From positions 60,824-124,823 of IMG/VR virus record IMGVR_UViG_3300036857_000619: a DNA stretch of 64,000 nucleotides. One strand, 5' to 3'. Positions 771 to 40,395 of the stretch are shown here, one piece after another (positions within the stretch are counted from its first letter, which is position 1; every line of letters begins with the position of its first letter). Under the pieces are notes generated by a model. That model was not told the origin of the DNA. It made no database searches and worked only from the letters and a program-made list of their open reading frames with translations. Origin of the DNA: a virus. The translations under genes and the position numbers were made by a program.

Positions 771-1279
771 CAGGGACCTATTCCATTCGGCGACGGAGCG
801 CCCGTCTCCTCGTGCGTCTGGGCGGTCTTCGCGGTCCCACCGATCGCCCCGTCTGGGGCACTGGCGGGATCGACCAGCAGGAGGAAGTCGGCTTCCGCCT
901 TGTGGACCGCCATCGGCAGCGCCTCGTTGCGGCTCAGGCTGACCAGGATGGCCGTGTAGGTGACTGGCTCCGTGATGACAGGCCGGTTGGCGATGCCAGA
1001 GCGGACCTGCAGGCTCATGTTGAGCGGACCACTGGGGTCCGGCCCCCAGTGATCGACATACACGACACCGCCCACGCTCGGATCGCCAGCCACGCGCACG
1101 GAGCATGGGCGCACGTAGCTGAACAGCGCGTCGAGCTCGACGATGTCGTACACGAGGATGGATCCCGACAGGTGCAGGGCGCCGTCCTGGATGGTGCGTT
1201 TCGGGTTGCCGTATTCCCAGTCGAAGCCCGTGCCGCGGAAACTTGAGACCGGGGAGTAGTAGGGCGAGGGCATCGTCAT
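770..1279 (-). CDS. Putative distal tail (Dit-like) protein, 169 aa
   Basis: Coupled directly downstream of the tape measure; beta-rich composition; call from synteny. Confidence 0.5.
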   Translation of the reverse strand: MTMPSPYYSPVSSFRGTGFDWEYGNPKRTIQDGALHLSGSILVYDIVELDALFSYVRPCSVRVAGDPSVGGVVYVDHWGPDPSGPLNMSLQVRSGIANRPVITEPVTYTAILVSLSRNEALPMAVHKAEADFLLLVDPASAPDGAIGGTAKTAQTHEETGAPSPNGIGP

Positions 1280-4200
1280 CGCTGAGCGACTCCCGACATC
1301 GTGCCGTTGACGTTGCCCTGAGCGGTGCGGAACACGTAGACGAGCTGATTGCGCACCTGTTCGTAGGTCTGATCGCCGGCTTGATCGGCGGCGGCGCGGG
1401 CGATGCGTTCGATGTCCTCCTGGGAATTGATCGTCGCGCCGCTCAGATCGACGCTGATCGACGGCGCGGTCGACGGCATCATCGCCGCGTGGTACACCTC
1501 GGCCTGCTCGGGTTCGGCCGCGGGTGTGATCGGCGCCTGGACGTAGCTCTGAATCGGGCGAACGTCGGGCCCCTGCGGAAACAGCCGCCGCAGCACCTGG
1601 TCGCTCGCGCCGCTGAAGATCTGCCGGATCTCGGGCGTGAGCGTGTCGCCGAAGCCCTGCATCGCTGCCTGGAGCTGCTGTTTGGTCGCGACCGGCGCCT
1701 GGGCGGGTGGTGGCGCCGGCTGCGGCTGCGGTTGGGCCTCGAGACTGCGGAGCGCGGCGACGATCTGGGCGAACTCGCTCAGCTCTTCGGGCGTCGGCTG
1801 GGTCTGGTAGGGATCTCGGCCTGGGACGAGGATGCCCTGGCGCACGCCCTCCTGTTGGGCCCGCGCGAAGGCCGTCGGCAGATCGAGCAAACCCGATTCG
1901 ATGGCCCCGAGATCGTTGTGCACGAACTCCGGCGCAAGCCCGAGGTGGCGCAGCGCCGCATTGGTCACTTCCTGCGCGGAGGGCGGTGCTGCCGCGGGTG
2001 GGGGCTGGGACGGTTGTCCGCCGCCGCCTGCGCCGCCACCCGGCCGCTGGTCCGGATACTCGCCGCGCTCGCCGCGCCGCTGGTCCTCGAGCGCGCGCTG
2101 GTTGGCTTGCTTGGTCTGCTCGTCGGTGATCTGCTTCTGAATATCCAGGCGCGCCTGGTCCGCCACGAGCTGCAGCGCCGTCGTCTTCAGCAGGTCGTTG
2201 GCGACATTCAGCAGGTCGGTCTCGGCTGCCAACCCGGCGTTTTCGAGGATCGCGGCGCGTTCGGCGGCCGTTGCCTGACGCTCGAGCGCGTCAGCCCCCA
2301 GCACCTGCCGCTCGGCGATCTCGCGTTCCGGTTCGCGCTGCAGATCGCGCAGATCGAGGGCCGTCTGGATGTGTAGTTGCTGGTTCTGCAGACTCGCCGC
2401 GATCTGCTGTTGCTGGAGCTGGACGTCCTCGAGCGCGCGCTGCTCGTTGCTCAGTTGATTCAGGATCAGGTCGCGCGCGATCTGCTCGTCCTCAAGCTGG
2501 CGTTGGGGGCCGACCAGCGAGCGTTGCGCTTCCAGGGACTGGGGCAGTTGGGCCTGCGCTTCGAGCGTGGCCTGGATCTGTTCCTGCACCAGACCAGGGA
2601 TCGCCCCAAAGTCCGCGCCGCGGCCGAGCAGCACATTGGCGCCGATCGCACGCAACCGCGCGCCGGCGATCGTGGCGCGATACTGCAGGTCCTCCTGCTC
2701 GCGCGTGGCAGCCAACGAGCCCTGACGGGCCAGGAGCAGCTGTCGCTCAGTCTCCAGGTTGGTGCGCTGGGCGATGGTGACCCTTGCCTGGAGCTGAGTC
2801 TGTTGCAACTGGTTGTCGGAGATGGCCAGCTCGAGTTGGAGTTGCTGCGCCTTGAGATTGGTGAGCTCCTGCTGGCGGCTGATGCCATTGGCCTGGACGT
2901 CGAGCAAGTCGTGCTGGTGCTGGGCGGAGAGCTCGTCGAGTTGCGCCTGGGCCTGGGCACGGCCCATGGCGATGTAGGCGCGCGCCTGCTCGATCTGTTT
3001 GAGCTGCGCCTGGGCGCCGGCCTGGCGCTGAAGATCGGCCAGCTCCTCCGCGGCTGGCCGCGTGCCGGGCTGACCCTGGATCGTCGCGACCGCGCCGGGT
3101 CCCTGTGCCGCGGCGCGGACCAGCGGCGGCAGCACTTCCAGGTTCTGGGCCTGCAGCGCCGTCGCCGCGTTGCGCTGGGCGAGGACCTGGGAAATCGCCT
3201 GGCCCTGGGCGAAGCTGGTGATGCCACCCGGCGGGATGACCAGCGGCGCGAAGGGTCCCAGCGCCGCCTGGCCGAGCTGCTGCGCCCGCTGGGCGATGGG
3301 CTGCAGATTGGTGATCAGGTCCAGCCGCGACTGCACGTCCTGGCTGGCCGTCGACAGCGCCGTGAGGCTGTTGGCCGCACCAGCGAGCGCTGGCGTCAGC
3401 TGCGTCTTGTGCGCGCGCGTGGCCTCATCAGCCGCTTGCTTCTCTTGCTGGAGCGCGATCGCGGCGTCGCGCACCGCCGGCGCCATGTCCTCGGGCTTGA
3501 CGCCCTGCTCGATCTGCGCCTGCGCCAGGGCGCGCGCTGCGATCGGGTTGGACTCCTCCGCGCCGAGCTGGAGCAGATAACCCTGCGGGCCGCGGCGATA
3601 GATCCGCACGTCTTCGGGTCGGGTGCCAGTGACAGTGGCCTGCAACTCGGGGTTGGCCGCCTCGATCAGCGATCGCGTGCGGAAGTTGCGGAGGATGTCC
3701 TCGGAGCGGAGGCCGACGAGGCCGGTGAGGCCCGCCAGCATCTTGGCCAGCTCGCCACCGGCATAGCCGACGACGGTCGAGAACGCCTCCCACGCCTGCT
3801 GGTTGCTCTTGGCCAACTGGTCCTGGGAATCGGCGAGCTTCTGGGCGTCACCAACCTGGCGCTCGTAGGTGTCGTTGAGCTGTTCCTGGATGGCCTGCAG
3901 ACGGATGAGCTGCTGCGTCGCCTCAGGCAGTTGGTCGAACCAGGCGCCAAACTGCTGCAGCGTCTGGCCAGGCAGCGGCTGGCGGCCGGTCAGCCGCTGG
4001 GTGAGCGCGGCAGAGCTGACGTCGATCGCACCGCCTGTCATGCGCGTCAGCTGGTCGGTGCTGCCGGAGATTGCCTGCTGGATCGCCTGGCCCGCGTCTT
4101 CGACGCTGGTACCGAACTCTCTGCCCAGCAGCCCAGCCTGCAGATTGAGCTGCGTCGCCAGATCGCCCTGCGGCGCCACGCCGGCACGCCGCGCGAGTGC

Positions 4201-7200
4201 CTGACCGGCGGTCGTCGCGCCGAGCTGGGCGCCGATATCAGCTGGCAGGCCACGCTGAATCTGGGAGACGAACGCCTGCTGACCGATCTGCGCACGGACC
4301 AGCTCGGTGCGCGTGCCCGCGATCTGCGCGCTGCGCGCCAGTTGCTGGTTGACGCCTTCGATCTGGTCGGACCGCTCGCCGTAGACCGCGTTGGTGGCGC
4401 GCGCGGCGCGCTGCCAGTCGCCCTCGGTCTGAATTGCGGCGGCGAACAGGTCGTGGAGTTGGCGGCCCAGGGAGCCCAGGATCGAGATGCCGACGCCCAG
4501 GCCGATCAGGTCCGTGCCGAAGCGGACGACGTCGCCGGAGGTGCCGCGGAACAGACGGTTGATGGCCTGGACGCCACGGCCGACGATGCCGAGCCCGTGG
4601 CCAGCCCGCTCGGAACTGGTCTCCAGACCGCGCAGGCTGCGGCTGTAGTCCTGGGTCGACTGGATCTGCTCGCCGAAGACGCGCGCCGGTCCGTAGGTCT
4701 CGGGCGTGATGCGGATGCGTTGACCGCCGATCGGGACGATCCGACCTTCCATGCCCGCCGGGACGGCGGTGCCGACCGCGGCTCGAGCACGCGCCTGGAG
4801 CGCGGGTGTCTCCAGCAGGCTAATGACCTGTTCCGAAGTCTCGAGGACCTGGCGGGTCGCGCGCGTGGTGCGCCGCGTGCCGCGTGTCGCTTCCTGGAGC
4901 TCGGCCGAGTAGTCGACGAGCGCGCGGTAGAGCGGGTAGGTCGCCTCGTTGATCTGGACGAAGCGCCGCTCGAGACCGCGGCCGACGGGCTGGATGGTGC
5001 CGGCGAGGATGGGTGGCAGCTCGTCGGTCCGCGCGCGTGCCTCCGCGCGCCGCGAGACCGGCAGCAGCTCCGCGACTTCCTCGGGTGTGGTGCGAACCCG
5101 CGCCCGTTCTTCACGCGCGCGCCGATCCGTCTCGGCCCGAATCCGGCGAGCTTCCCTCTCTCGCTCCTCCTCCGAGCGTCGCGCCAGCGCCGCCAACTCC
5201 TCGGCGGAGGGCGGCTCAACCTCCGAGGCGTAGGCGCGGATGAACGGCGGGAAGCTCGCGAGCCGCGTACCGCTCAGCAGCTCGCCCGCGCGACCGCCGC
5301 GTCGCCGTGCCTGCCGACGGGCCTCCCGCGCGGCGACGCTGAGCTCGCCCAGCTCCTCCGGGCTCATGGTGCCCGACTCGTATTCGGCCAGCAGCGGCGT
5401 CGTCAGGAAGCGCTCGGGCACGCCCGCCGCGCGGGCGACGGCCCGCATGCCACGCGTGTCCCTGGACAGCCGCGCCGTGGTTTCGCCGCTGCGCCTGGCG
5501 GCGGCGGTGCCGCGGTCGGTCGCCCCCGCCGCCTCGGCCTCGGCGCGCATCAGGCGCTCGAGCAGCGGCAGCTTGGCACGGATGGCCTCAGCTTCGGTGT
5601 CGATCGCTTCGGCGCTGTCGCGTGCGGACGCGGCCGCGTCGTCGGTCGCGTCGGCGGTCTCTCGCTCGCGGTCCGTCAGTCCCTCGAGGTAGTCGGCGAC
5701 TTCCTCAGGAGTCGACGGCCCTGGGGCGGCGGCCGCGGCTGGCGTGTAGGCAGGCCGCATCGCCGCGGCCGCCAGCGGACTGACGTACGGACCGGTCGGG
5801 GCCGCTGCGGCGGCTGGGATCGCGGCCGGTGGCGGGCCGATAGTCGGCTCGGGGTAGATGTCCTCTTCTTCAGGCGCTGCCGCTGCACCCGCAAGACGCG
5901 CGGAGACGGCCGCCATCGCCGCACGGCGGGTGGGGCTGCGCACTGCGCCCATCGCGGCGATCGTGCGTGACGCCTCGGGCTCGCGCAGGCGCTCCTCGGG
6001 TGCTTGCGGCGGTAGCTCGTCGGCCAGGTAGCTGAGCCTGCCGGACACCTGCAGCATGACCTGGTTGACCGTCTGCAGCTCGGACTTGGCGGCGTCCAGC
6101 TCCTTGCCAGTCCTGGTGGCGACCTCGTGCTCGAGCGCACGGCGATCCGCGCGCAGCTGGAGCATCTGCGCCTTGGCGCGGTTCCATTCCGCCTCGAGCT
6201 CGGCGATGCGCAGCTCGGACAGCTGGGCGACCTGATAGCGGTACTTCTGCGGGTCGTCGCCCTCCGGCATCGTCTGGAACAGCCTGCGGAACTCGGTGCC
6301 GGAGGCCTTCTTGCCAACGTAGACGCTGACCTGTTTACCCGCCTGGCTGATGAGCTCGGCGAAGAGCTGGCGGCCGGAATCGGCGGTGACGCCCTGGAAG
6401 CGGCCCGTCAGCCCCTTGTACTGGCCGCTCAGGATCTGCAGGATCTGACCGCGCTCGACATCCCAGTTCTTCGGCTGGGCCGAGACGCCGATCGGGCGGT
6501 CGCGGAAGATGACGTCGCCCATCTGGCGCGCCGCCTGCTGGCGTGCGCCGGCCGGCGTGAGGCCCTGGCGCACCAGCTCCTGGCGCATGGCGGCGACGCG
6601 CGTGGACCGCTCTGCCTGGTAGCGCGCGTAGGCGCCTGCGGTCAGCTGCGGGCCTGGCTCGACGGCCGCCGTGCGGCCGCCGCTCTGCGCCTGACGCCGG
6701 CCGCGCACGCCTGGCGCCATCTCCGCGGCGCGCGCGCGCAGCTCCTCGACACGCCGCGTGTCGCCCGCGTTCCGCGCCTCGACGATCCGCCTGGCGAGGT
6801 CCCCGCGTGCTTGCAGCCAGTCGTCCTGGCCGGAGAGCACCTGCTCGAGCAGCGCGCGCGTCTCGGCCAGGCTGTTCAGCGCCTGTTGGGCGACCGCGTC
6901 CTTCCGCTCGCCGATCTGCCGTTCGAGCTGGGTGATCGCCTCCAGCTGGCGACGCGCCGCGGCCGTCACCTCCCCGATCGTCAGCTCGCCTGTGCGTGCC
7001 TCCTTCGCCGCCGGCGGTTCGTAGTCCAGCCGCTTCAGCCACGCGAGTCGCTCCGGGGTGTCGGCCGGCGGCGGCTCCGCGCGGCGCGCCTCCTGGGCCA
7101 TCGTGCCCGGCGTGGTCAGGCGAGTGGCGCGCTGCTGGAGCTCGGCCGCCGTCTGCAGCAGTCCCTGGCGGATGCTGAGCACGACGTCGTCGATGCGCTT

Positions 7201-37578: not shown

Positions 37579-40044
37579 ATGGTCATTTCGGCGAGCCAGC
37601 GCCGGCAGATCGAGCGCACCGCGGCCAACCTGGGAGCCGAACTGCTGAACGGCCCTCCCCTTGCGCCGACGCCACCGCCCAGGCAACTGCTGCCAGCGCC
37701 GCGAGTACCGCGCGGCGGCGCGCGGCAGGAAGGCCCGTGGATGCTCGAACGGAGCCCGGACGGCAGCGCACGCGTGCGCGCCAATCTGCACCCCGGCCAG
37801 AGCGCGGCGATGGCCAGCCGCGCCCGCACGATCGCCATGATCGCCGGGTCGCAGAGCGGCAAGACCTCGAGCGGGCCGCTGTGGCTGGAGCGCGAGATCC
37901 GCCTGCAGGGGCCGGGCGACTACCTGGCCGTGACGGCGACCTTCCCACTGCTGAAGCGCAAGATGCTGCCGGAGTTCCTGCGGTTGTTCCAGGGCACGCT
38001 CAATCTGGGCACGTGGATGGCCGCGGACAAGATGTTCGTCTTCCACGACAACCAGACCCGCGTGCTCTTTGGATCGGCGACCAATCCCGAGTCGCTCGAG
38101 TCGGCGACGGCCAAAGCCGCCTGGCTCGACGAGGCCGGCCAGGCGCAGTTTCGGCTCGAGTCGTACGAGGCCATCGACCGCCGCCTGGCGCTGTACGAAG
38201 GACGTCGGTTCATTTCGACGACGCCGTACAACCAGGGGCCTCTTTTCACCACCGTCTACAAGCCCGCGGTCGACGGCGACCCGGACATCTGCGTCATCCA
38301 GTTCGCGTCCTCGCTGAACCCGTCGTTTCCGATCGAGGAGATGGAGCGCCAGCGCGACAAACTGCCGCTCTGGAAGTACCGCATGTTCTTCGAGGGCCGC
38401 TTCGACAAGCCGCCGGGCCTGATCTACTCGGACTACGAGGACAGCTACCGCGAGCAGGGCGGGCACCTGATCAAGGCGCGCACGATGCCCATCCCGGCGT
38501 GGTGGCCGCGCTACATCGGCCTGGACTTCGGCGGCGTGCACCTGGCGCGCATCTTCATCGCCCAGGACCCGCTGACCAACACGTTCTACGTGTACGACGA
38601 GCAGCTCTCGGGCGGGCGGACCGCCTCGCAGCACGCCCAGGACATCCTCCAGCAGCTGGGTGGCGCGCCGCTGTACCGCTCGTGGGGCGGCGCCAAGAGC
38701 GAGGACAGCTGGCGGCTGGAGTTCACCGCGGCCGGGCTGGTGGTCGAACCGCCGCCGGTCTCCGACGTGGAGGTCGGCATCGACCGCGCGATCGAGCTGT
38801 TCAAGGCTCGAAGGCTGTTCGTCTTCGACACGTGCGTGGGCTTGCGCTCGGAGCTGGGCACGTACTCGCGCAAGGCCGGCCCGGACGGCGAGCCGCTCGA
38901 GGACATCCAGGACAAGGCCGCCTATCACCGCTGCGTGACGGCCGGAACGCTCATCGAGACCCGCTCCGGACTACGACCGATCGAGCAGATCAGACCGGGC
39001 GAGCTGGTGCGGACGCGTCAGGGGTTCCGACGTGTGCTGGACAGTGCGCTGACGGAGCGACAGGCCAAGGTCCTGACACTCGAGCTGAGTGATGGCCGGA
39101 AATTGACAGCGACGCCTGAGCATCCCATCTGGGTGCGCAAGCGTGGTTGGGTAAGAATGGACGCACTGCGATACGCTATGGCGGTCGAATGCAGCCCTTC
39201 ACGCCCCCAGCCCGCGAATACAAGTCCGAGGTGGTCGTCTTCCAGGGCATCACCTACCGGCGCTACCCGGAAGCGGAAGATGAGCATCGCCGCAACTACT
39301 TCCACGCCAGTGAAAACACCGGCGGCCGCCCGCGGTATCTCCACATCGCCATCTGGCAAGACGCGACCGGACAGAAGCTCCCTAAAGGCTGGGTGGTTCA
39401 TCACGACGACCACAACCCACTCAACAACGACCCCTCGAATCTCAAACCGATGTCGCAAGCCGAGCACAACCAGCACCACTTCCGCGGGCCGGGGGCAAGT
39501 CCCGCGAGGCTGGCGCATCTGGAGCGAGTTCGTGCGCAGGCCGTGGAGTGGCACAGCTCAGAGGCTGGTCTGGCGTGGCACGCCAAACATGCTCGAGAAG
39601 CTTGGGCGAAGCGTCAGACAGCCAAGCGCAGCTGTGAGCAGTGCGGCACGAGCTTCGAGTCGATCACGCGGCGCGCGAGCGATCGCTTCTGTTGCAACTC
39701 GTGCAAGTCGAGTTGGCGGCGGGCCAGCGGCGTCGACAACGAGACGCGCACGTGTGCCTGGTGCGGACAATCCTTCGAGACGAACCGGTACTCACGCATT
39801 CGCCATTGCTCGCGCAGTTGTTCGAGCAAGGCCAGGATGTCTGGTCGTCCGAGTAGTCCGCGAGACCGAGCCACGGGACGTTTTCAATCTGACGGTTGAA
39901 GGCGAGCACGAATACTTCGCGAACGGCATCCTCGTCTCGAACTGCGACGCGCTCCGGTATCTGTGCTCGGGCTTGAGCGGGCCGCAGCAGCCGCTGCCGG
40001 TGCTGGCCATGGGCCGCGCGCGGGGCTGGCAACCGCGCTATTGA
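37579..40044 (+). CDS. terL: Terminase large subunit with intein (821 aa precursor, 484 aa spliced)
   Basis: Walker A AGSQSGKT, Walker B WLDEAGQ, motif III FISTTP, nuclease IGLDFG; YHR|C-DALRY is reconstituted after splicing. Confidence 0.92.
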   Translation: MVISASQRRQIERTAANLGAELLNGPPLAPTPPPRQLLPAPRVPRGGARQEGPWMLERSPDGSARVRANLHPGQSAAMASRARTIAMIAGSQSGKTSSGPLWLEREIRLQGPGDYLAVTATFPLLKRKMLPEFLRLFQGTLNLGTWMAADKMFVFHDNQTRVLFGSATNPESLESATAKAAWLDEAGQAQFRLESYEAIDRRLALYEGRRFISTTPYNQGPLFTTVYKPAVDGDPDICVIQFASSLNPSFPIEEMERQRDKLPLWKYRMFFEGRFDKPPGLIYSDYEDSYREQGGHLIKARTMPIPAWWPRYIGLDFGGVHLARIFIAQDPLTNTFYVYDEQLSGGRTASQHAQDILQQLGGAPLYRSWGGAKSEDSWRLEFTAAGLVVEPPPVSDVEVGIDRAIELFKARRLFVFDTCVGLRSELGTYSRKAGPDGEPLEDIQDKAAYHRCVTAGTLIETRSGLRPIEQIRPGELVRTRQGFRRVLDSALTERQAKVLTLELSDGRKLTATPEHPIWVRKRGWVRMDALRYAMAVECSPSRPQPANTSPRWSSSRASPTGATRKRKMSIAATTSTPVKTPAAARGISTSPSGKTRPDRSSLKAGWFITTTTTHSTTTPRISNRCRKPSTTSTTSAGRGQVPRGWRIWSEFVRRPWSGTAQRLVWRGTPNMLEKLGRSVRQPSAAVSSAARASSRSRGARAIASVATRASRVGGGPAASTTRRARVPGADNPSRRTGTHAFAIARAVVRARPGCLVVRVVRETEPRDVFNLTVEGEHEYFANGILVSNCDALRYLCSGLSGPQQPLPVLAMGRARGWQPRY
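38932..39942 (+). mobile_element. Intein (337 aa, precursor residues 452-788)
   Basis: Block A CVTAGTLI, block B TATPEHPIW, block F DVFNLTV..EHEYFANG, terminal Ser-Asn, +1 Cys. Confidence 0.92.
39189..39899 (+). CDS. HNH homing endonuclease with C-terminal zinc fingers (236 aa), nested out of frame in the intein
   Basis: LH..IW...G..LPKGWVVHHDDHNPLNNDPSNL..MS..EH; CEQC..RFCCNSC and CAWC..HCSRSC; -1 frame relative to TerL. Confidence 0.88.
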   Translation: MQPFTPPAREYKSEVVVFQGITYRRYPEAEDEHRRNYFHASENTGGRPRYLHIAIWQDATGQKLPKGWVVHHDDHNPLNNDPSNLKPMSQAEHNQHHFRGPGASPARLAHLERVRAQAVEWHSSEAGLAWHAKHAREAWAKRQTAKRSCEQCGTSFESITRRASDRFCCNSCKSSWRRASGVDNETRTCAWCGQSFETNRYSRIRHCSRSCSSKARMSGRPSSPRDRATGRFQSDG

Positions 40045-40194
40045 GCACGAACTCCCGCACTTTTGCGTGCTACAGTGAGCCGCACTGCAGCTTTGGCTCA
40101 GGGGTCGGCAACGGCCGCGGGGTCCAAGGGTGTGGTGGGGTGTTCGAGGGGCATTCGGCGCAATCCGGGTGCCCCTCGACGTGTGTTCAGCGGT

Positions 40195-40395
40195 TTAGTT
40201 GGCCTCCAGCAGCGGCATCGTCGCCTCGCAGCGCGTGCAGACCAGCAGACGGCGCTCGATCTCCTCGGGAGTCGCCTGCCAGCGGTGCATGCCGTAGCGC
40301 TCGCAGTCCCAGTGGCAGTGGCAATCGCAGCCGTCGGGCTGACGGATGTTGTGGCTGCACGCCGCGCACAGCACGTCGTAGCGCCTGATCTCCAT
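40195..40395 (-). CDS. Cys-rich small protein (66 aa)
   Basis: CAAC, CDCHCHWDC, CTRC. Confidence 0.45.
   Translation of the reverse strand: MEIRRYDVLCAACSHNIRQPDGCDCHCHWDCERYGMHRWQATPEEIERRLLVCTRCEATMPLLEAN

Follow-up and report, generated by a model that had tools for sequence, protein, structure and literature searches.

The window, by which we mean the whole 64,000-nucleotide stretch of soil phage DNA that was analysed, carries a terL gene interrupted by what its sequence identifies as an intein. The central part of this intein overlaps a predicted HNH nuclease ORF written on the same strand in the -1 frame. The elements of the locus, in window positions, are:

37579..40044, + strand: terL precursor ORF; 821 aa, 484 aa after predicted splicing; matches to Terminase_6N, Hint_2 and Intein_splicing
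37579..38931, + strand: N-extein; 451 aa with C-terminal end ...AAYHR; aligned to the intein-less TerL of the relative L117 (90% identity)
38932..39942, + strand: class-1 intein; 337 aa from Cys1 to Ser-Asn, with a +1 Cys; corresponds to the stretch absent from the syntenic relatives L117 and L118
38932..39201, + strand: N-terminal splicing domain; intein residues 1-90, blocks A and B; conserved in 67 loci
39189..39899, + strand, -1 frame: predicted HNH homing-endonuclease ORF; 236 aa from ATG; HNH_3 match, conserved columns, structural model, dN/dS 0.24
39202..39831, + strand: in-frame intein linker; residues 91-300; low complexity, predicted disorder, dN/dS 1.2
39333..39470, + strand: HNH catalytic core HH-x7-NN-x3-N-x8-H-x3-H; HNH_3 match, residues 63-108 of the 250-aa reading; invariant columns
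39633..39704, + strand: zinc finger 1, CxxC ... CxxxC; C149, C152, C168 and C172 invariant; FCS/YacG-like (Z 4.2)
39753..39821, + strand: zinc finger 2, CxxC ... CxxxC; C189, C192, C207 and C211 nearly invariant
39832..39942, + strand: C-terminal splicing domain; residues 301-337, blocks F and G
39897..39899, + strand: HNH ORF stop codon (TGA); in the intein frame it falls across the codons for Val and Glu (gtT GAa) in block F 'NLTVEGEHEY'
39943..40044, + strand: C-extein; first residues CDALRY (nuclease-domain motif), last 22 residues as in L117

The terL intein

The intein starts with Cys1 at 38932 ('CVTAGTLIE'), contains block B 'TPEHPIW' and ends in 'GILVSN' before the +1 Cys at 39943, splitting the host motif between AAYHR and CDALRY. 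The class-1 columns (Cys1, block B TxxH, C-terminal Asn and +1 Cys) are conserved in 67 loci, and the block F/G consensus 'VYNLTVEGEHEYFANGILVxN' is common to 69. When the isolated intein was compared with Pfam, Hint_2 scored above its cut-off (30.2 bits vs 28.4) and Intein_splicing marginally under it (35.5 vs 35.8). In the AF2 model, the two splicing half-domains consist entirely of strands and have pLDDT values of 94-98 (residues 1-90) and 92-98 (residues 301-337), while residues 91-300 reach 43-52 and are devoid of secondary structure. This in-frame middle is rich in Ser, Thr, Arg and Pro and has zero stops. The terL frame is uninterrupted from 37579 to 40044, so that the intein is contiguous and not of the split or fractured type.

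Close relatives were recovered by a search with the TerL extein, which returned hundreds of terminase homologues. A metagenome scan with the intein protein yielded only distant inteins of about 30% identity, which were therefore unusable for dN/dS calculations on the window, and a DNA search of the phage collection gave a single 66-bp match in the C-extein (phage TJE1) and no close DNA relatives there. Two relatives, L117 and L118, have a TerL 90% identical to that of the window and syntenic DNA about 83% identical, and lack exactly positions 38932-39942 (1011 bp). In the TerL of L117, whose intein-less allele lies at positions 3001-4449 of that sequence, the site is ...FHRCDALRY..., without a residue gained or lost, and DNA synteny resumes at 39942. 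No HNH gene was found in 7.4 kb of syntenic L117/L118 sequence. A third relative, L119, has an extein 84% identical to that of the window and an intein at the same site.

The sequence-only reading had placed a TerL intein with complete splicing motifs in this nuclease motif, and the junction it proposed coincides exactly with the intein-less allele. Its description of a stop-free, Ser/Thr/Arg-rich and featureless intein middle agrees with both the translation and the predicted disorder, and we reproduced its figures of 821 aa reduced to 484 aa on splicing and of a 711-bp overlap between the two frames. The 38932-39942 insert is, judged on sequence, a real class-1 intein. Protein splicing would be expected, since the splicing motifs are intact and terL is essential.

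The HNH ORF in the -1 frame

Read in the -1 frame, the sequence is free of stops from 39120 to the TGA at 39897-39899; TTG occurs at 39147, and the first ATG is that at 39189. Its product matches HNH_3 (PF13392) in Pfam with E=1e-12 (47.9 bits, cut-off 24.8); HNH_3 was the only family found, and Endonuclease_7 gave no match at E<=0.1. An alignment of 54 HNH sequences contains 17 invariant His/Asn/Cys/Trp columns. The catalytic and metal-binding residues H71, H72, N80, N84 and H93 do not vary in this alignment, and H97 hardly does. The position of the stop of the ORF, read from translations, is shared by TJE1 and Highwayman.

The predicted structure of the HNH protein has a pLDDT of 89.9 and is confident over residues 11-220. 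Its closest PDB structure is the homing endonuclease I-HmuI (1U3E; Z 7.2, rmsd 2.9 A over 75 residues), well ahead of I-PpoI (Z 4.4). The I-HmuI match was obtained with an all-against-representatives structure aligner; Foldseek against the PDB with the multi-domain model returned nothing significant (best E 0.29). The model suggests an I-HmuI-like nuclease followed by a helical, two-helix linker and by two C4 zinc fingers. A -1 frame HNH with two C4 zinc fingers, its own ATG and a stop inside block F had been proposed from the sequence, and Pfam and the residues concur. By profile, residues and predicted fold, the -1 frame ORF is an HNH nuclease.

A weak Shine-Dalgarno-like motif (GGCGG) lies four bases upstream of the window ATG at 39189. 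Our scan of positions 38700-40300 found no sigma-70-like promoter and no intrinsic terminator, a scan that is uninformative for a high-GC phage. Among RNA runs, none was listed as containing the stretch. In nearly all nested HNH ORFs, an ATG or GTG occurs at a similar position, a few codons 5' of the conserved core, and in most loci with a nested ORF it is the sole start candidate there. In many of them a GGAGG, AGGAG or GAGG motif precedes it. Elsewhere, the same nuclease is encoded by a stand-alone gene or by a gene separating the two parts of a split terL intein, and in these settings its translation has to be independent. Initiation at its own ATG (39189) is most likely for the window ORF, which would imply internal translation initiation.

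Selection on the overlapping frames

Nei-Gojobori comparison of the window with L119 gave dN/dS values of 0.24 for the HNH frame, 1.20 for the intein frame and 1.72 for the third frame; that of the N-extein was 0.21. Evaluation of dN/dS in both frames was a check that the sequence-only reading had put forward, and its outcome is purifying selection on the HNH frame. The L119 intein and HNH are much more diverged than the extein: the HNH proteins share 54% amino-acid identity with a dS of 1.5, against 0.7 for the extein, and the -1 offset is kept at 62% nucleotide identity. The extein has a GC content at third positions (GC3) of 0.92; across the overlapping stretch, the highest GC (0.74) shifts to the third position of the HNH frame.

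The probability of an open intein frame was estimated by resampling the synonymous codons of the HNH protein from the phage's own extein codon usage (5000 trials). The intein frame was free of stops in 1.8% of the resamplings (P=0.018 for the window), the expected mean being 2.7 stops. Across the family, the host frame is stop-free in 69 of 69 nested loci, with a chance median of 3 stops and up to 10 in AT-rich cases. The HNH frame shows, in its substitution pattern, long-term purifying selection, and the overprinted arrangement is real and kept by selection.

Distribution of the nuclease family

We assembled 86 loci with this HNH family, with GC contents of 0.30-0.69. The gene is nested in a terL intein in 69 of them, invariably with the -1 offset; in none of the loci does the HNH share the intein frame. 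The searches gave about 420 hits on viral contigs, and further hits in prophages; L040-L050 form a dense cluster. The nested form occurs in the Tetrasphaera phage TJE1, the Acinetobacter phage Highwayman and the Clostridium phage phiCDHM19. In four loci (L056, L066, L084 and L085), the HNH gene lies between the halves of a split terL intein, whose blocks F and G were found by reading the translations after a regular-expression search had missed them. Free-standing homologues adjoin terS, terL or portal genes. Finally, six related loci carry stop-disrupted HNH copies, the terL/intein frame still being open.

A quick IQ-TREE phylogeny of the HNH was built leaving out L022/L023 (run-on ORF), L046, L063, L068, L077, L081, L083 and L086 (stops), and duplicates. 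It is mostly unresolved, with free and split forms interleaved with overprinted ones, and its well-supported branches force at least 2 state changes. Owing to this poor resolution, the direction, order or number of invasion events is not readable from the tree. The earlier proposal that a free-standing HNH invaded a mini-intein fits the existence of stand-alone homologues beside terS, terL and portal genes.

We give about even chances to a broader reading, in which the I-HmuI-like HNH with double zinc finger represents one ancient and very widespread terL-targeting homing lineage, shuttling repeatedly between a free-standing state beside terL, a sandwiched state in a split intein and an overprinted state in a fixed -1 frame. 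This constancy of frame might be imposed by the block F stop codon together with a start just 3' of the N-terminal splicing domain.

Comparison with known systems

The sequence-only reading had cautioned that the novelty of the arrangement needed checking, and rightly so, as the layout was in the literature in 2012-2015 for brucellaphages and in 2025 in an actinophage preprint. Brucellaphages Tb and Pr (Perisivirus) have a terL intein with a nested out-of-frame HNH (NC_019446, gp07/gp08), annotated in 2012 and discussed in 2015 (PMC4422536). As in the window, the HNH gene is entirely enclosed by the intein, has the orientation of terL but a different frame, and leaves the reading of terL uninterrupted. 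The brucellaphage HNH, of about 228 aa and with a zinc ribbon, differs from the window protein in belonging to PF01844 and in having its zinc ribbons N-terminal to the catalytic core, and the two share short local similarity only. Its offset is +1 instead of -1. The brucellaphage intein occupies about residues 180-506 of an 848-aa precursor, about a fifth into the mature TerL, whereas that of the window lies in the C-terminal nuclease motif. We read the brucellaphage case as an independent origin of the same layout.

Gosselin, Arsenault & Gogarten described non-canonical inteins of actinobacteriophages whose endonuclease VII-like homing endonuclease (HEN) lies out of frame ('frame 3'), and for which they propose the invasion of an intein by a free-standing HEN; the layout is considered rare in their survey, which is restricted to actinophages (bioRxiv 10.1101/2025.01.02.630785). 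These inteins resemble that of the window in that the HEN gene lies between the splicing blocks, on the same strand and in the same relative frame, that the in-frame middle is unstructured and that the host genes include terL. The actinophage nuclease belongs to the Endonuclease VII-like family (IPR004211), with a catalytic core at residues 1-67 matched to 1E7D, whereas that of the window is HNH_3/I-HmuI-like with two C-terminal zinc fingers and belongs to a family whose host GC ranges from 30% to 69%. The phages of this survey were absent from the tblastn results. Membership of the window nuclease in their Endonuclease VII-like family was rejected on Pfam, structure (I-HmuI, and not T4 endonuclease VII, is the closest match) and tblastn, their genes being taken from the published description.

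With I-HmuI from the Bacillus phage SPO1 (PDB 1U3E), the window protein shares an N-terminal beta-strand DNA-binding element and an HNH_3-type core, at a sequence identity of about 17%. I-HmuI, whose gene lies in a group I intron, carries a helix-turn-helix domain at its C-terminus, whereas the window protein lies in an intein and has the two-helix linker and two C4 zinc fingers instead. I-HmuI is a nicking enzyme, which we count against a homing reading of the window locus.

Fractured genes, in which a free-standing endonuclease gene separates the halves of a split intein, were reported by Dassa et al. in 2009 with GIY-YIG and Vsr-like enzymes, not HNH (PMC2677866). The window shares with them the evolutionary logic of a free-standing endonuclease gene placed at the endonuclease-insertion point of the intein, but its intein is contiguous; the four split-intein loci of our set match the fractured-gene layout, in terL. 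Hidden out-of-frame HNH genes are also known from the ShiLan insertion in actinophage DNA methylase genes (Arsenault et al. 2025, PMC11855218), where an overprinted homing endonuclease similarly sits inside an insert with an open host frame, but without splicing domains and not in terL. [quoted passage not shown] The overprinted-HNH terL intein is thus not new as a kind. The window adds a further member to a widespread family of HNH_3 and double zinc-finger nucleases, of which no description was found in the literature that we searched.

Interpretation and alternative explanations

We consider it very probable that the insert is a composite homing element in terL, made of a mini-intein and of a separately translated, overprinted homing endonuclease. 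The mini-intein would be translated within TerL, excise itself and ligate ...AAYHR with CDALRY..., yielding a functional terminase of 484 aa, so that splicing would preserve host gene function. About 210 central intein residues would serve as a mere flexible, stop-free tether between the splicing half-domains, and the independent HNH gene would overwrite this tether in the -1 frame, from the ATG at 39189 to the TGA within block F. During co-infection, the nuclease may nick or cut an intein-less terL at or near the HR/CDA junction, and repair would copy the intein and the nuclease gene jointly into the cut allele. Both the cleavage target and homing are putative; the support for them is indirect and comes from the presence or absence of the insert among close relatives.

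As the window is a metagenome assembly and the in-frame middle looks like junk, two compensating indels might have displaced an ordinary in-frame HNH domain of the intein. In contigs of three soil runs (X1, X4 and X5, the last from a sample not marked among the potential sources of the window), the stretch recurs with 0 differences and 0 gaps, the same offset is found in isolate phage genomes and in 69 loci in all, L119 retains it in spite of its nucleotide divergence, and the set is devoid of any in-frame version of this HNH. The sequence-only reading had itself named compensating indels as the refuting case; the independent contigs and the same-frame loci exclude it, the out-of-frame HNH is genuine, and the chance of an assembly or sequencing artefact is negligible. 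A programmed -1 ribosomal frameshift from the TerL/intein frame, giving a TerL-N/intein-N/HNH fusion, would account for an offset that is invariably -1, for the weak Shine-Dalgarno motif of the window and for a -1 frame open over about 70 nt 5' of the ATG. We nevertheless find it highly improbable: no X XXY YYZ slippery heptamer was seen, by reading, from the -1 frame stop (about 39117-39119) to 39189, in most loci the HNH frame is closed by a stop no more than about 15 nt 5' of a conserved start (ATG or GTG) that frequently has a good Shine-Dalgarno motif, and the split-intein and free-standing relatives have no upstream frame to shift from.

The nested HNH might instead be a terminase packaging accessory, comparable with the HNH proteins adjacent to HK97-like terminases, and not a homing enzyme. 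Members of the family do adjoin terS, terL or portal genes, as a free-standing homing endonuclease would likewise adjoin its target gene. Kala et al. are said to have found in 2014 that some terminase-adjacent HNH proteins are required for cos cleavage. A functional link with the terminase was also raised in the brucellaphage paper (PMC4422536). A terminase-associated packaging HNH of the HK97 gp74 type would be expected as a constant component of the packaging module in related phages, whereas the window HNH is absent from L117 and L118, syntenic phages that, with 90% identity in TerL, have neither the intein nor an HNH in 7.4 kb. The loss of an intact HNH in six related loci whose terL/intein frame is open, together with a fold resembling that of a homing nickase, further makes a packaging role quite unlikely. 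That the HNH ORF of the window is an unexpressed relic, the intein persisting because its precise loss is rare, also seems unlikely, if slightly less so. The weak ribosome-binding site, the lack of a promoter match, the decayed copies in relatives and an HNH-frame GC3 of 0.74, below the phage norm of 0.92, could be taken in its favour, but a lower GC3 is expected from the dual constraint, the catalytic and zinc-binding residues are all intact, the model is confident over residues 11-220, and the dN/dS of 0.24 against L119 corresponds to long-term purifying selection.

Implications

The GenBank records of TJE1, Highwayman and phiCDHM19 list terL and miss the nested nuclease gene. As gene callers and GenBank records overlook it, a protein-coding gene goes uncounted in many phage genomes. 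The nuclease family is a clear case of sustained dual coding, where avoidance of stop codons is the sole constraint on one of the frames. The window, an intein-less allele with a 90% identical TerL and an allele with a diverged intein form a trio useful for cleavage and homing experiments. The family, in which one enzyme occurs free-standing, within split inteins and overprinted, illustrates in nature how inteins come to gain endonucleases. If the shuttling lineage proposed above is true, the overprinted state would be a stable, selected end-point in phages of at least 3 bacterial phyla, and not a rare transitional accident.

Organisation of the terL intein

The window belongs to a 124.8 kb phage genome of soil origin with direct terminal repeats. 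Its large terminase gene holds an intein and, one base back, a second open frame:

37579-40044, + strand: large terminase precursor ORF, 821 aa
38932-39942, + strand: class-1 intein, precursor residues 452-788
39120-39899, + strand: second frame as read from the sequence, open from 39120, first ATG at 39189, TGA at 39897-39899

The intein Cys1 lies in the context CVTAGTLIE, block B reads TPEHPIW and blocks F/G read VFNLTVEGEHEYFANGILVSN, followed by the +1 Cys. The intein splits the C-terminal TerL motif AAYHR/CDALRY (slashes mark intein boundaries). Given what is generally known of terminase nucleases, this motif is taken as the final catalytic-Asp motif in their RNase H-like nuclease domain. 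In the TerL frame, the middle of the intein is rich in Ser, Thr, Arg and Pro and contains no stop codon. The -1 frame product matches Pfam HNH_3 (47.9 bits, cut-off 24.8) and carries two CxxC...CxxxC zinc fingers, its TGA being built out of the Val-Glu codons of block F. The sequence-only reading had described splicing motifs interrupting YHR/CDALRY around a stop-free in-frame middle, which was accurate; its account of a -1 frame HNH with two C4 zinc fingers, its own ATG and a stop within block F was correct in every detail.

The model of the HNH-frame product (mean pLDDT 89.9) comprises, in order, two beta hairpins, a beta-beta-alpha HNH core, two long helices and two zinc-ribbon-like modules. 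Foldseek was uninformative for this model; in a full scan of PDB representatives the top match was the homing nickase I-HmuI (1U3E; Z 7.2, rmsd 2.9 A over 75 residues), against 4.4 for I-PpoI, and the zinc modules resembled FCS/YacG fingers (Z 4.2). Confidence in the TerL-frame intein model is bimodal: pLDDT is 92-98 for residues 1-90 and 301-337, which are all strands, and 43-52 for residues 91-300, which have no modelled secondary structure. The tether predicted to be disordered coincides with the HNH overlap.

Occurrence of the nested arrangement

Synonymous codons of the HNH protein were resampled with the phage's own codon usage for the window alone; the expected number of stops was 2.7, and just 1.8% of trials left the intein frame open. 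Homologues of the nuclease were found by tblastn, all at a -1 offset, within the annotated terL of Tetrasphaera phage TJE1, Acinetobacter phage Highwayman and Clostridium phage phiCDHM19. Their GenBank records list terL only, the nested 200-230-aa HNH ORFs being unannotated:

TJE1 (L001): terL 1119-3305, nested HNH ORF ~2474-3160
Highwayman (L002): terL 999-3281, nested HNH ORF ~2462-3139
phiCDHM19 (L003): terL 443-2842, nested HNH ORF ~2029-2721

In viral contigs, a profile scan confirmed 421 relatives. The best 80, together with the window and five previously retrieved related loci, made up a set of 86. Among these 86 loci the HNH ORF is nested in a longer ORF at 69, at offset -1 in every case and never at another. 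In all 69 the host frame is free of stops and a terminase motif of the '(x)DAxRY' type comes after intein blocks F/G; in 67 a '(D/N)xH' motif precedes the N-terminal splicing domain. The GC content of the nested loci ranges from 0.30 to 0.69, and the host-frame stops expected have a median of 3, reaching 10 in AT-rich loci. This comparative evidence settles that the arrangement is real and beyond chance.

A pair of compensating sequencing errors could also have placed the HNH out of frame. Three soil runs gave independently assembled contigs that cover the stretch with 0 differences and 0 gaps; one of these runs carries no flag marking it as a possible source of the window. Since these contigs agree and the 69 loci share the -1 offset and stop-free host frame, this scenario, against which the sequence-only reading had advised a check, is excluded.

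The insertion register varies slightly. Most inteins precede the Cys of 'H(x)/C(x)DAxRY'; those of Highwayman, L053, L061 and L075 lie a few residues off, after the 'DA'-equivalent ('..IDA/C..N/CRYA'), and related elements therefore occupy neighbouring, non-identical target sites. At two loci (L022, 2894-5212; L023, 2035-4353) no stop closes the HNH frame, which continues into the following 544-aa ORF; a 459-aa Terminase_6N protein is encoded directly upstream. Gene fusion, loss of the stop or misassembly of a 69% GC contig may account for this.

Selection on the two frames

Third-codon-position GC is 0.92 in the exteins; in the overlap the GC peak (0.74) falls instead at third positions in the HNH frame. 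A search with the TerL extein gave two close relatives. One is L117/L118, whose TerL (482 aa, 90% identical) has no intein. In the other, L119 (TerL 84% identical), an intein occupies the site used in the window, and the HNH ORF (4608-5231) again lies in the -1 frame. dN/dS was calculated with the Nei-Gojobori method on the same aligned nucleotides.

dN/dS between the window and L119
HNH frame: 0.24
Intein frame: 1.20
Third frame: 1.72
N-extein: 0.21

By this measure the nuclease protein is as strongly conserved as the terminase, and the absence of stop codons is the only feature maintained in the intein frame. The earlier dual-coding proposal is supported by the contrast between the HNH and intein frames. 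Among 54 family members, little or no variation is seen at the catalytic His/Asn, in the 'EWHxSxEG..WH' helix or at eight Cys.

Probable route of nuclease expression

Nearly all nested ORFs have an ATG or GTG a few codons ahead of the conserved 'E.V.F.G..Y(R)RYP' strand, at most loci the only start candidate. A GGAGG, AGGAG or GAGG frequently stands ahead of it, and often a same-frame stop lies within ~15 nt upstream. The motif upstream of the window's ATG 39189 is weak (GGCGG), and a sigma-70 scan of 38700-40300, uninformative for a high-GC phage, found no promoter-like site. Stand-alone copies of the same nuclease gene adjoin terS, terL or portal genes. At four loci (L056, L066, L084 and L085) the gene is flanked by a terL-N/intein-N ORF on one side and a short intein-C/terL-C ORF on the other, an arrangement that constitutes a naturally split intein. 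In these four the first ORF ends just past the N-terminal splicing domain, 6-8 host-frame stops cross the HNH gene, and the short ORF carries blocks F/G and the C-extein. In L056 terL-N/IntN spans 1374-2927, HNH 2908-3513 and IntC runs from ~3480; the L085 short ORF starts 'MAKVVSITPAG...', ~36 aa ahead of the +1 Cys.

Frameshifting into the HNH frame would be the alternative to internal initiation. The stretch from the upstream stop to ATG 39189 contains no slippery heptamer, and stand-alone and split-intein copies can be translated only on their own. Because of this, and of the nested ORFs' own start codons, the sequences favour internal initiation.

Homing versus packaging

The nested HNH could instead be an essential packaging factor of the HK97 gp74 type. 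Compared with L117/L118 (~83% nucleotide identity, synteny on both sides), the window shows a clean 1011-bp insertion, and neither locus contains an HNH homologue; intein and nuclease gene are gained or lost jointly. Against L119, dS is ~1.5 for the intein/HNH versus 0.7 for the host gene, HNH identity is 54% versus 84% for terL (amino acids), and the element (L119 4354-5277, window 38932-39942) is 62% identical in nucleotides, the surrounding terL ~75%. This suggests separate acquisitions of the intein, or turnover of the element faster than that of the host gene. Six loci (L046, L063, L068, L077, L086, L033) hold stop-disrupted HNH copies within still-open terL/intein frames; they look like endonuclease genes decaying in intact inteins, the stage expected of a homing cycle. 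Joint presence and absence, faster divergence and decayed copies argue against an essential packaging role.

Relation to known systems

An out-of-frame nuclease gene nested in an intein is already a known layout. The terL of Brucella phage Tb (NC_019446) is annotated 'intein present', and the record places an HNH gene within it. This is an element independent of that in the window: the HNH belongs to PF01844, its zinc ribbons are N-terminal, the frame offset is +1 and the insertion point is early in TerL. Gosselin, Arsenault and Gogarten (bioRxiv 10.1101/2025.01.02.630785) described actinophage inteins, terL among them, with an Endonuclease VII-like gene in 'frame 3' as well as antisense endonucleases, and proposed invasion by free-standing genes. 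A hidden HNH is reported in methylase genes (PMC11855218), as is a cyanobacterial dnaX intein with an out-of-frame endonuclease (bioRxiv 10.64898/2026.09.14.751524). Dassa et al. 2009 (PMC2677866) found GIY-YIG or Vsr-like genes, HNH not among them, between split-intein halves; our four split loci are an HNH version of these 'fractured genes', a form absent from that work. The seven catalogued mycobacteriophage TerL intein sites are all in the ATPase domain, whereas the window's lies in the C-terminal nuclease motif. The literature searched gave no report of this HNH_3/I-HmuI-like nuclease family with two C-terminal zinc fingers, of its constant -1 frame at the TerL C-terminal nuclease motif, or of its presence in all three states, free-standing, split-intein and overprinted.

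The observation of an overprinted HNH in the TerL intein is confirmed. Its interpretation as a free-standing HNH that invaded a mini-intein and would be separately translated is supported. The added value is modest: the trio of intein-plus, intein-minus and diverged-intein phages makes cleavage and homing directly testable.
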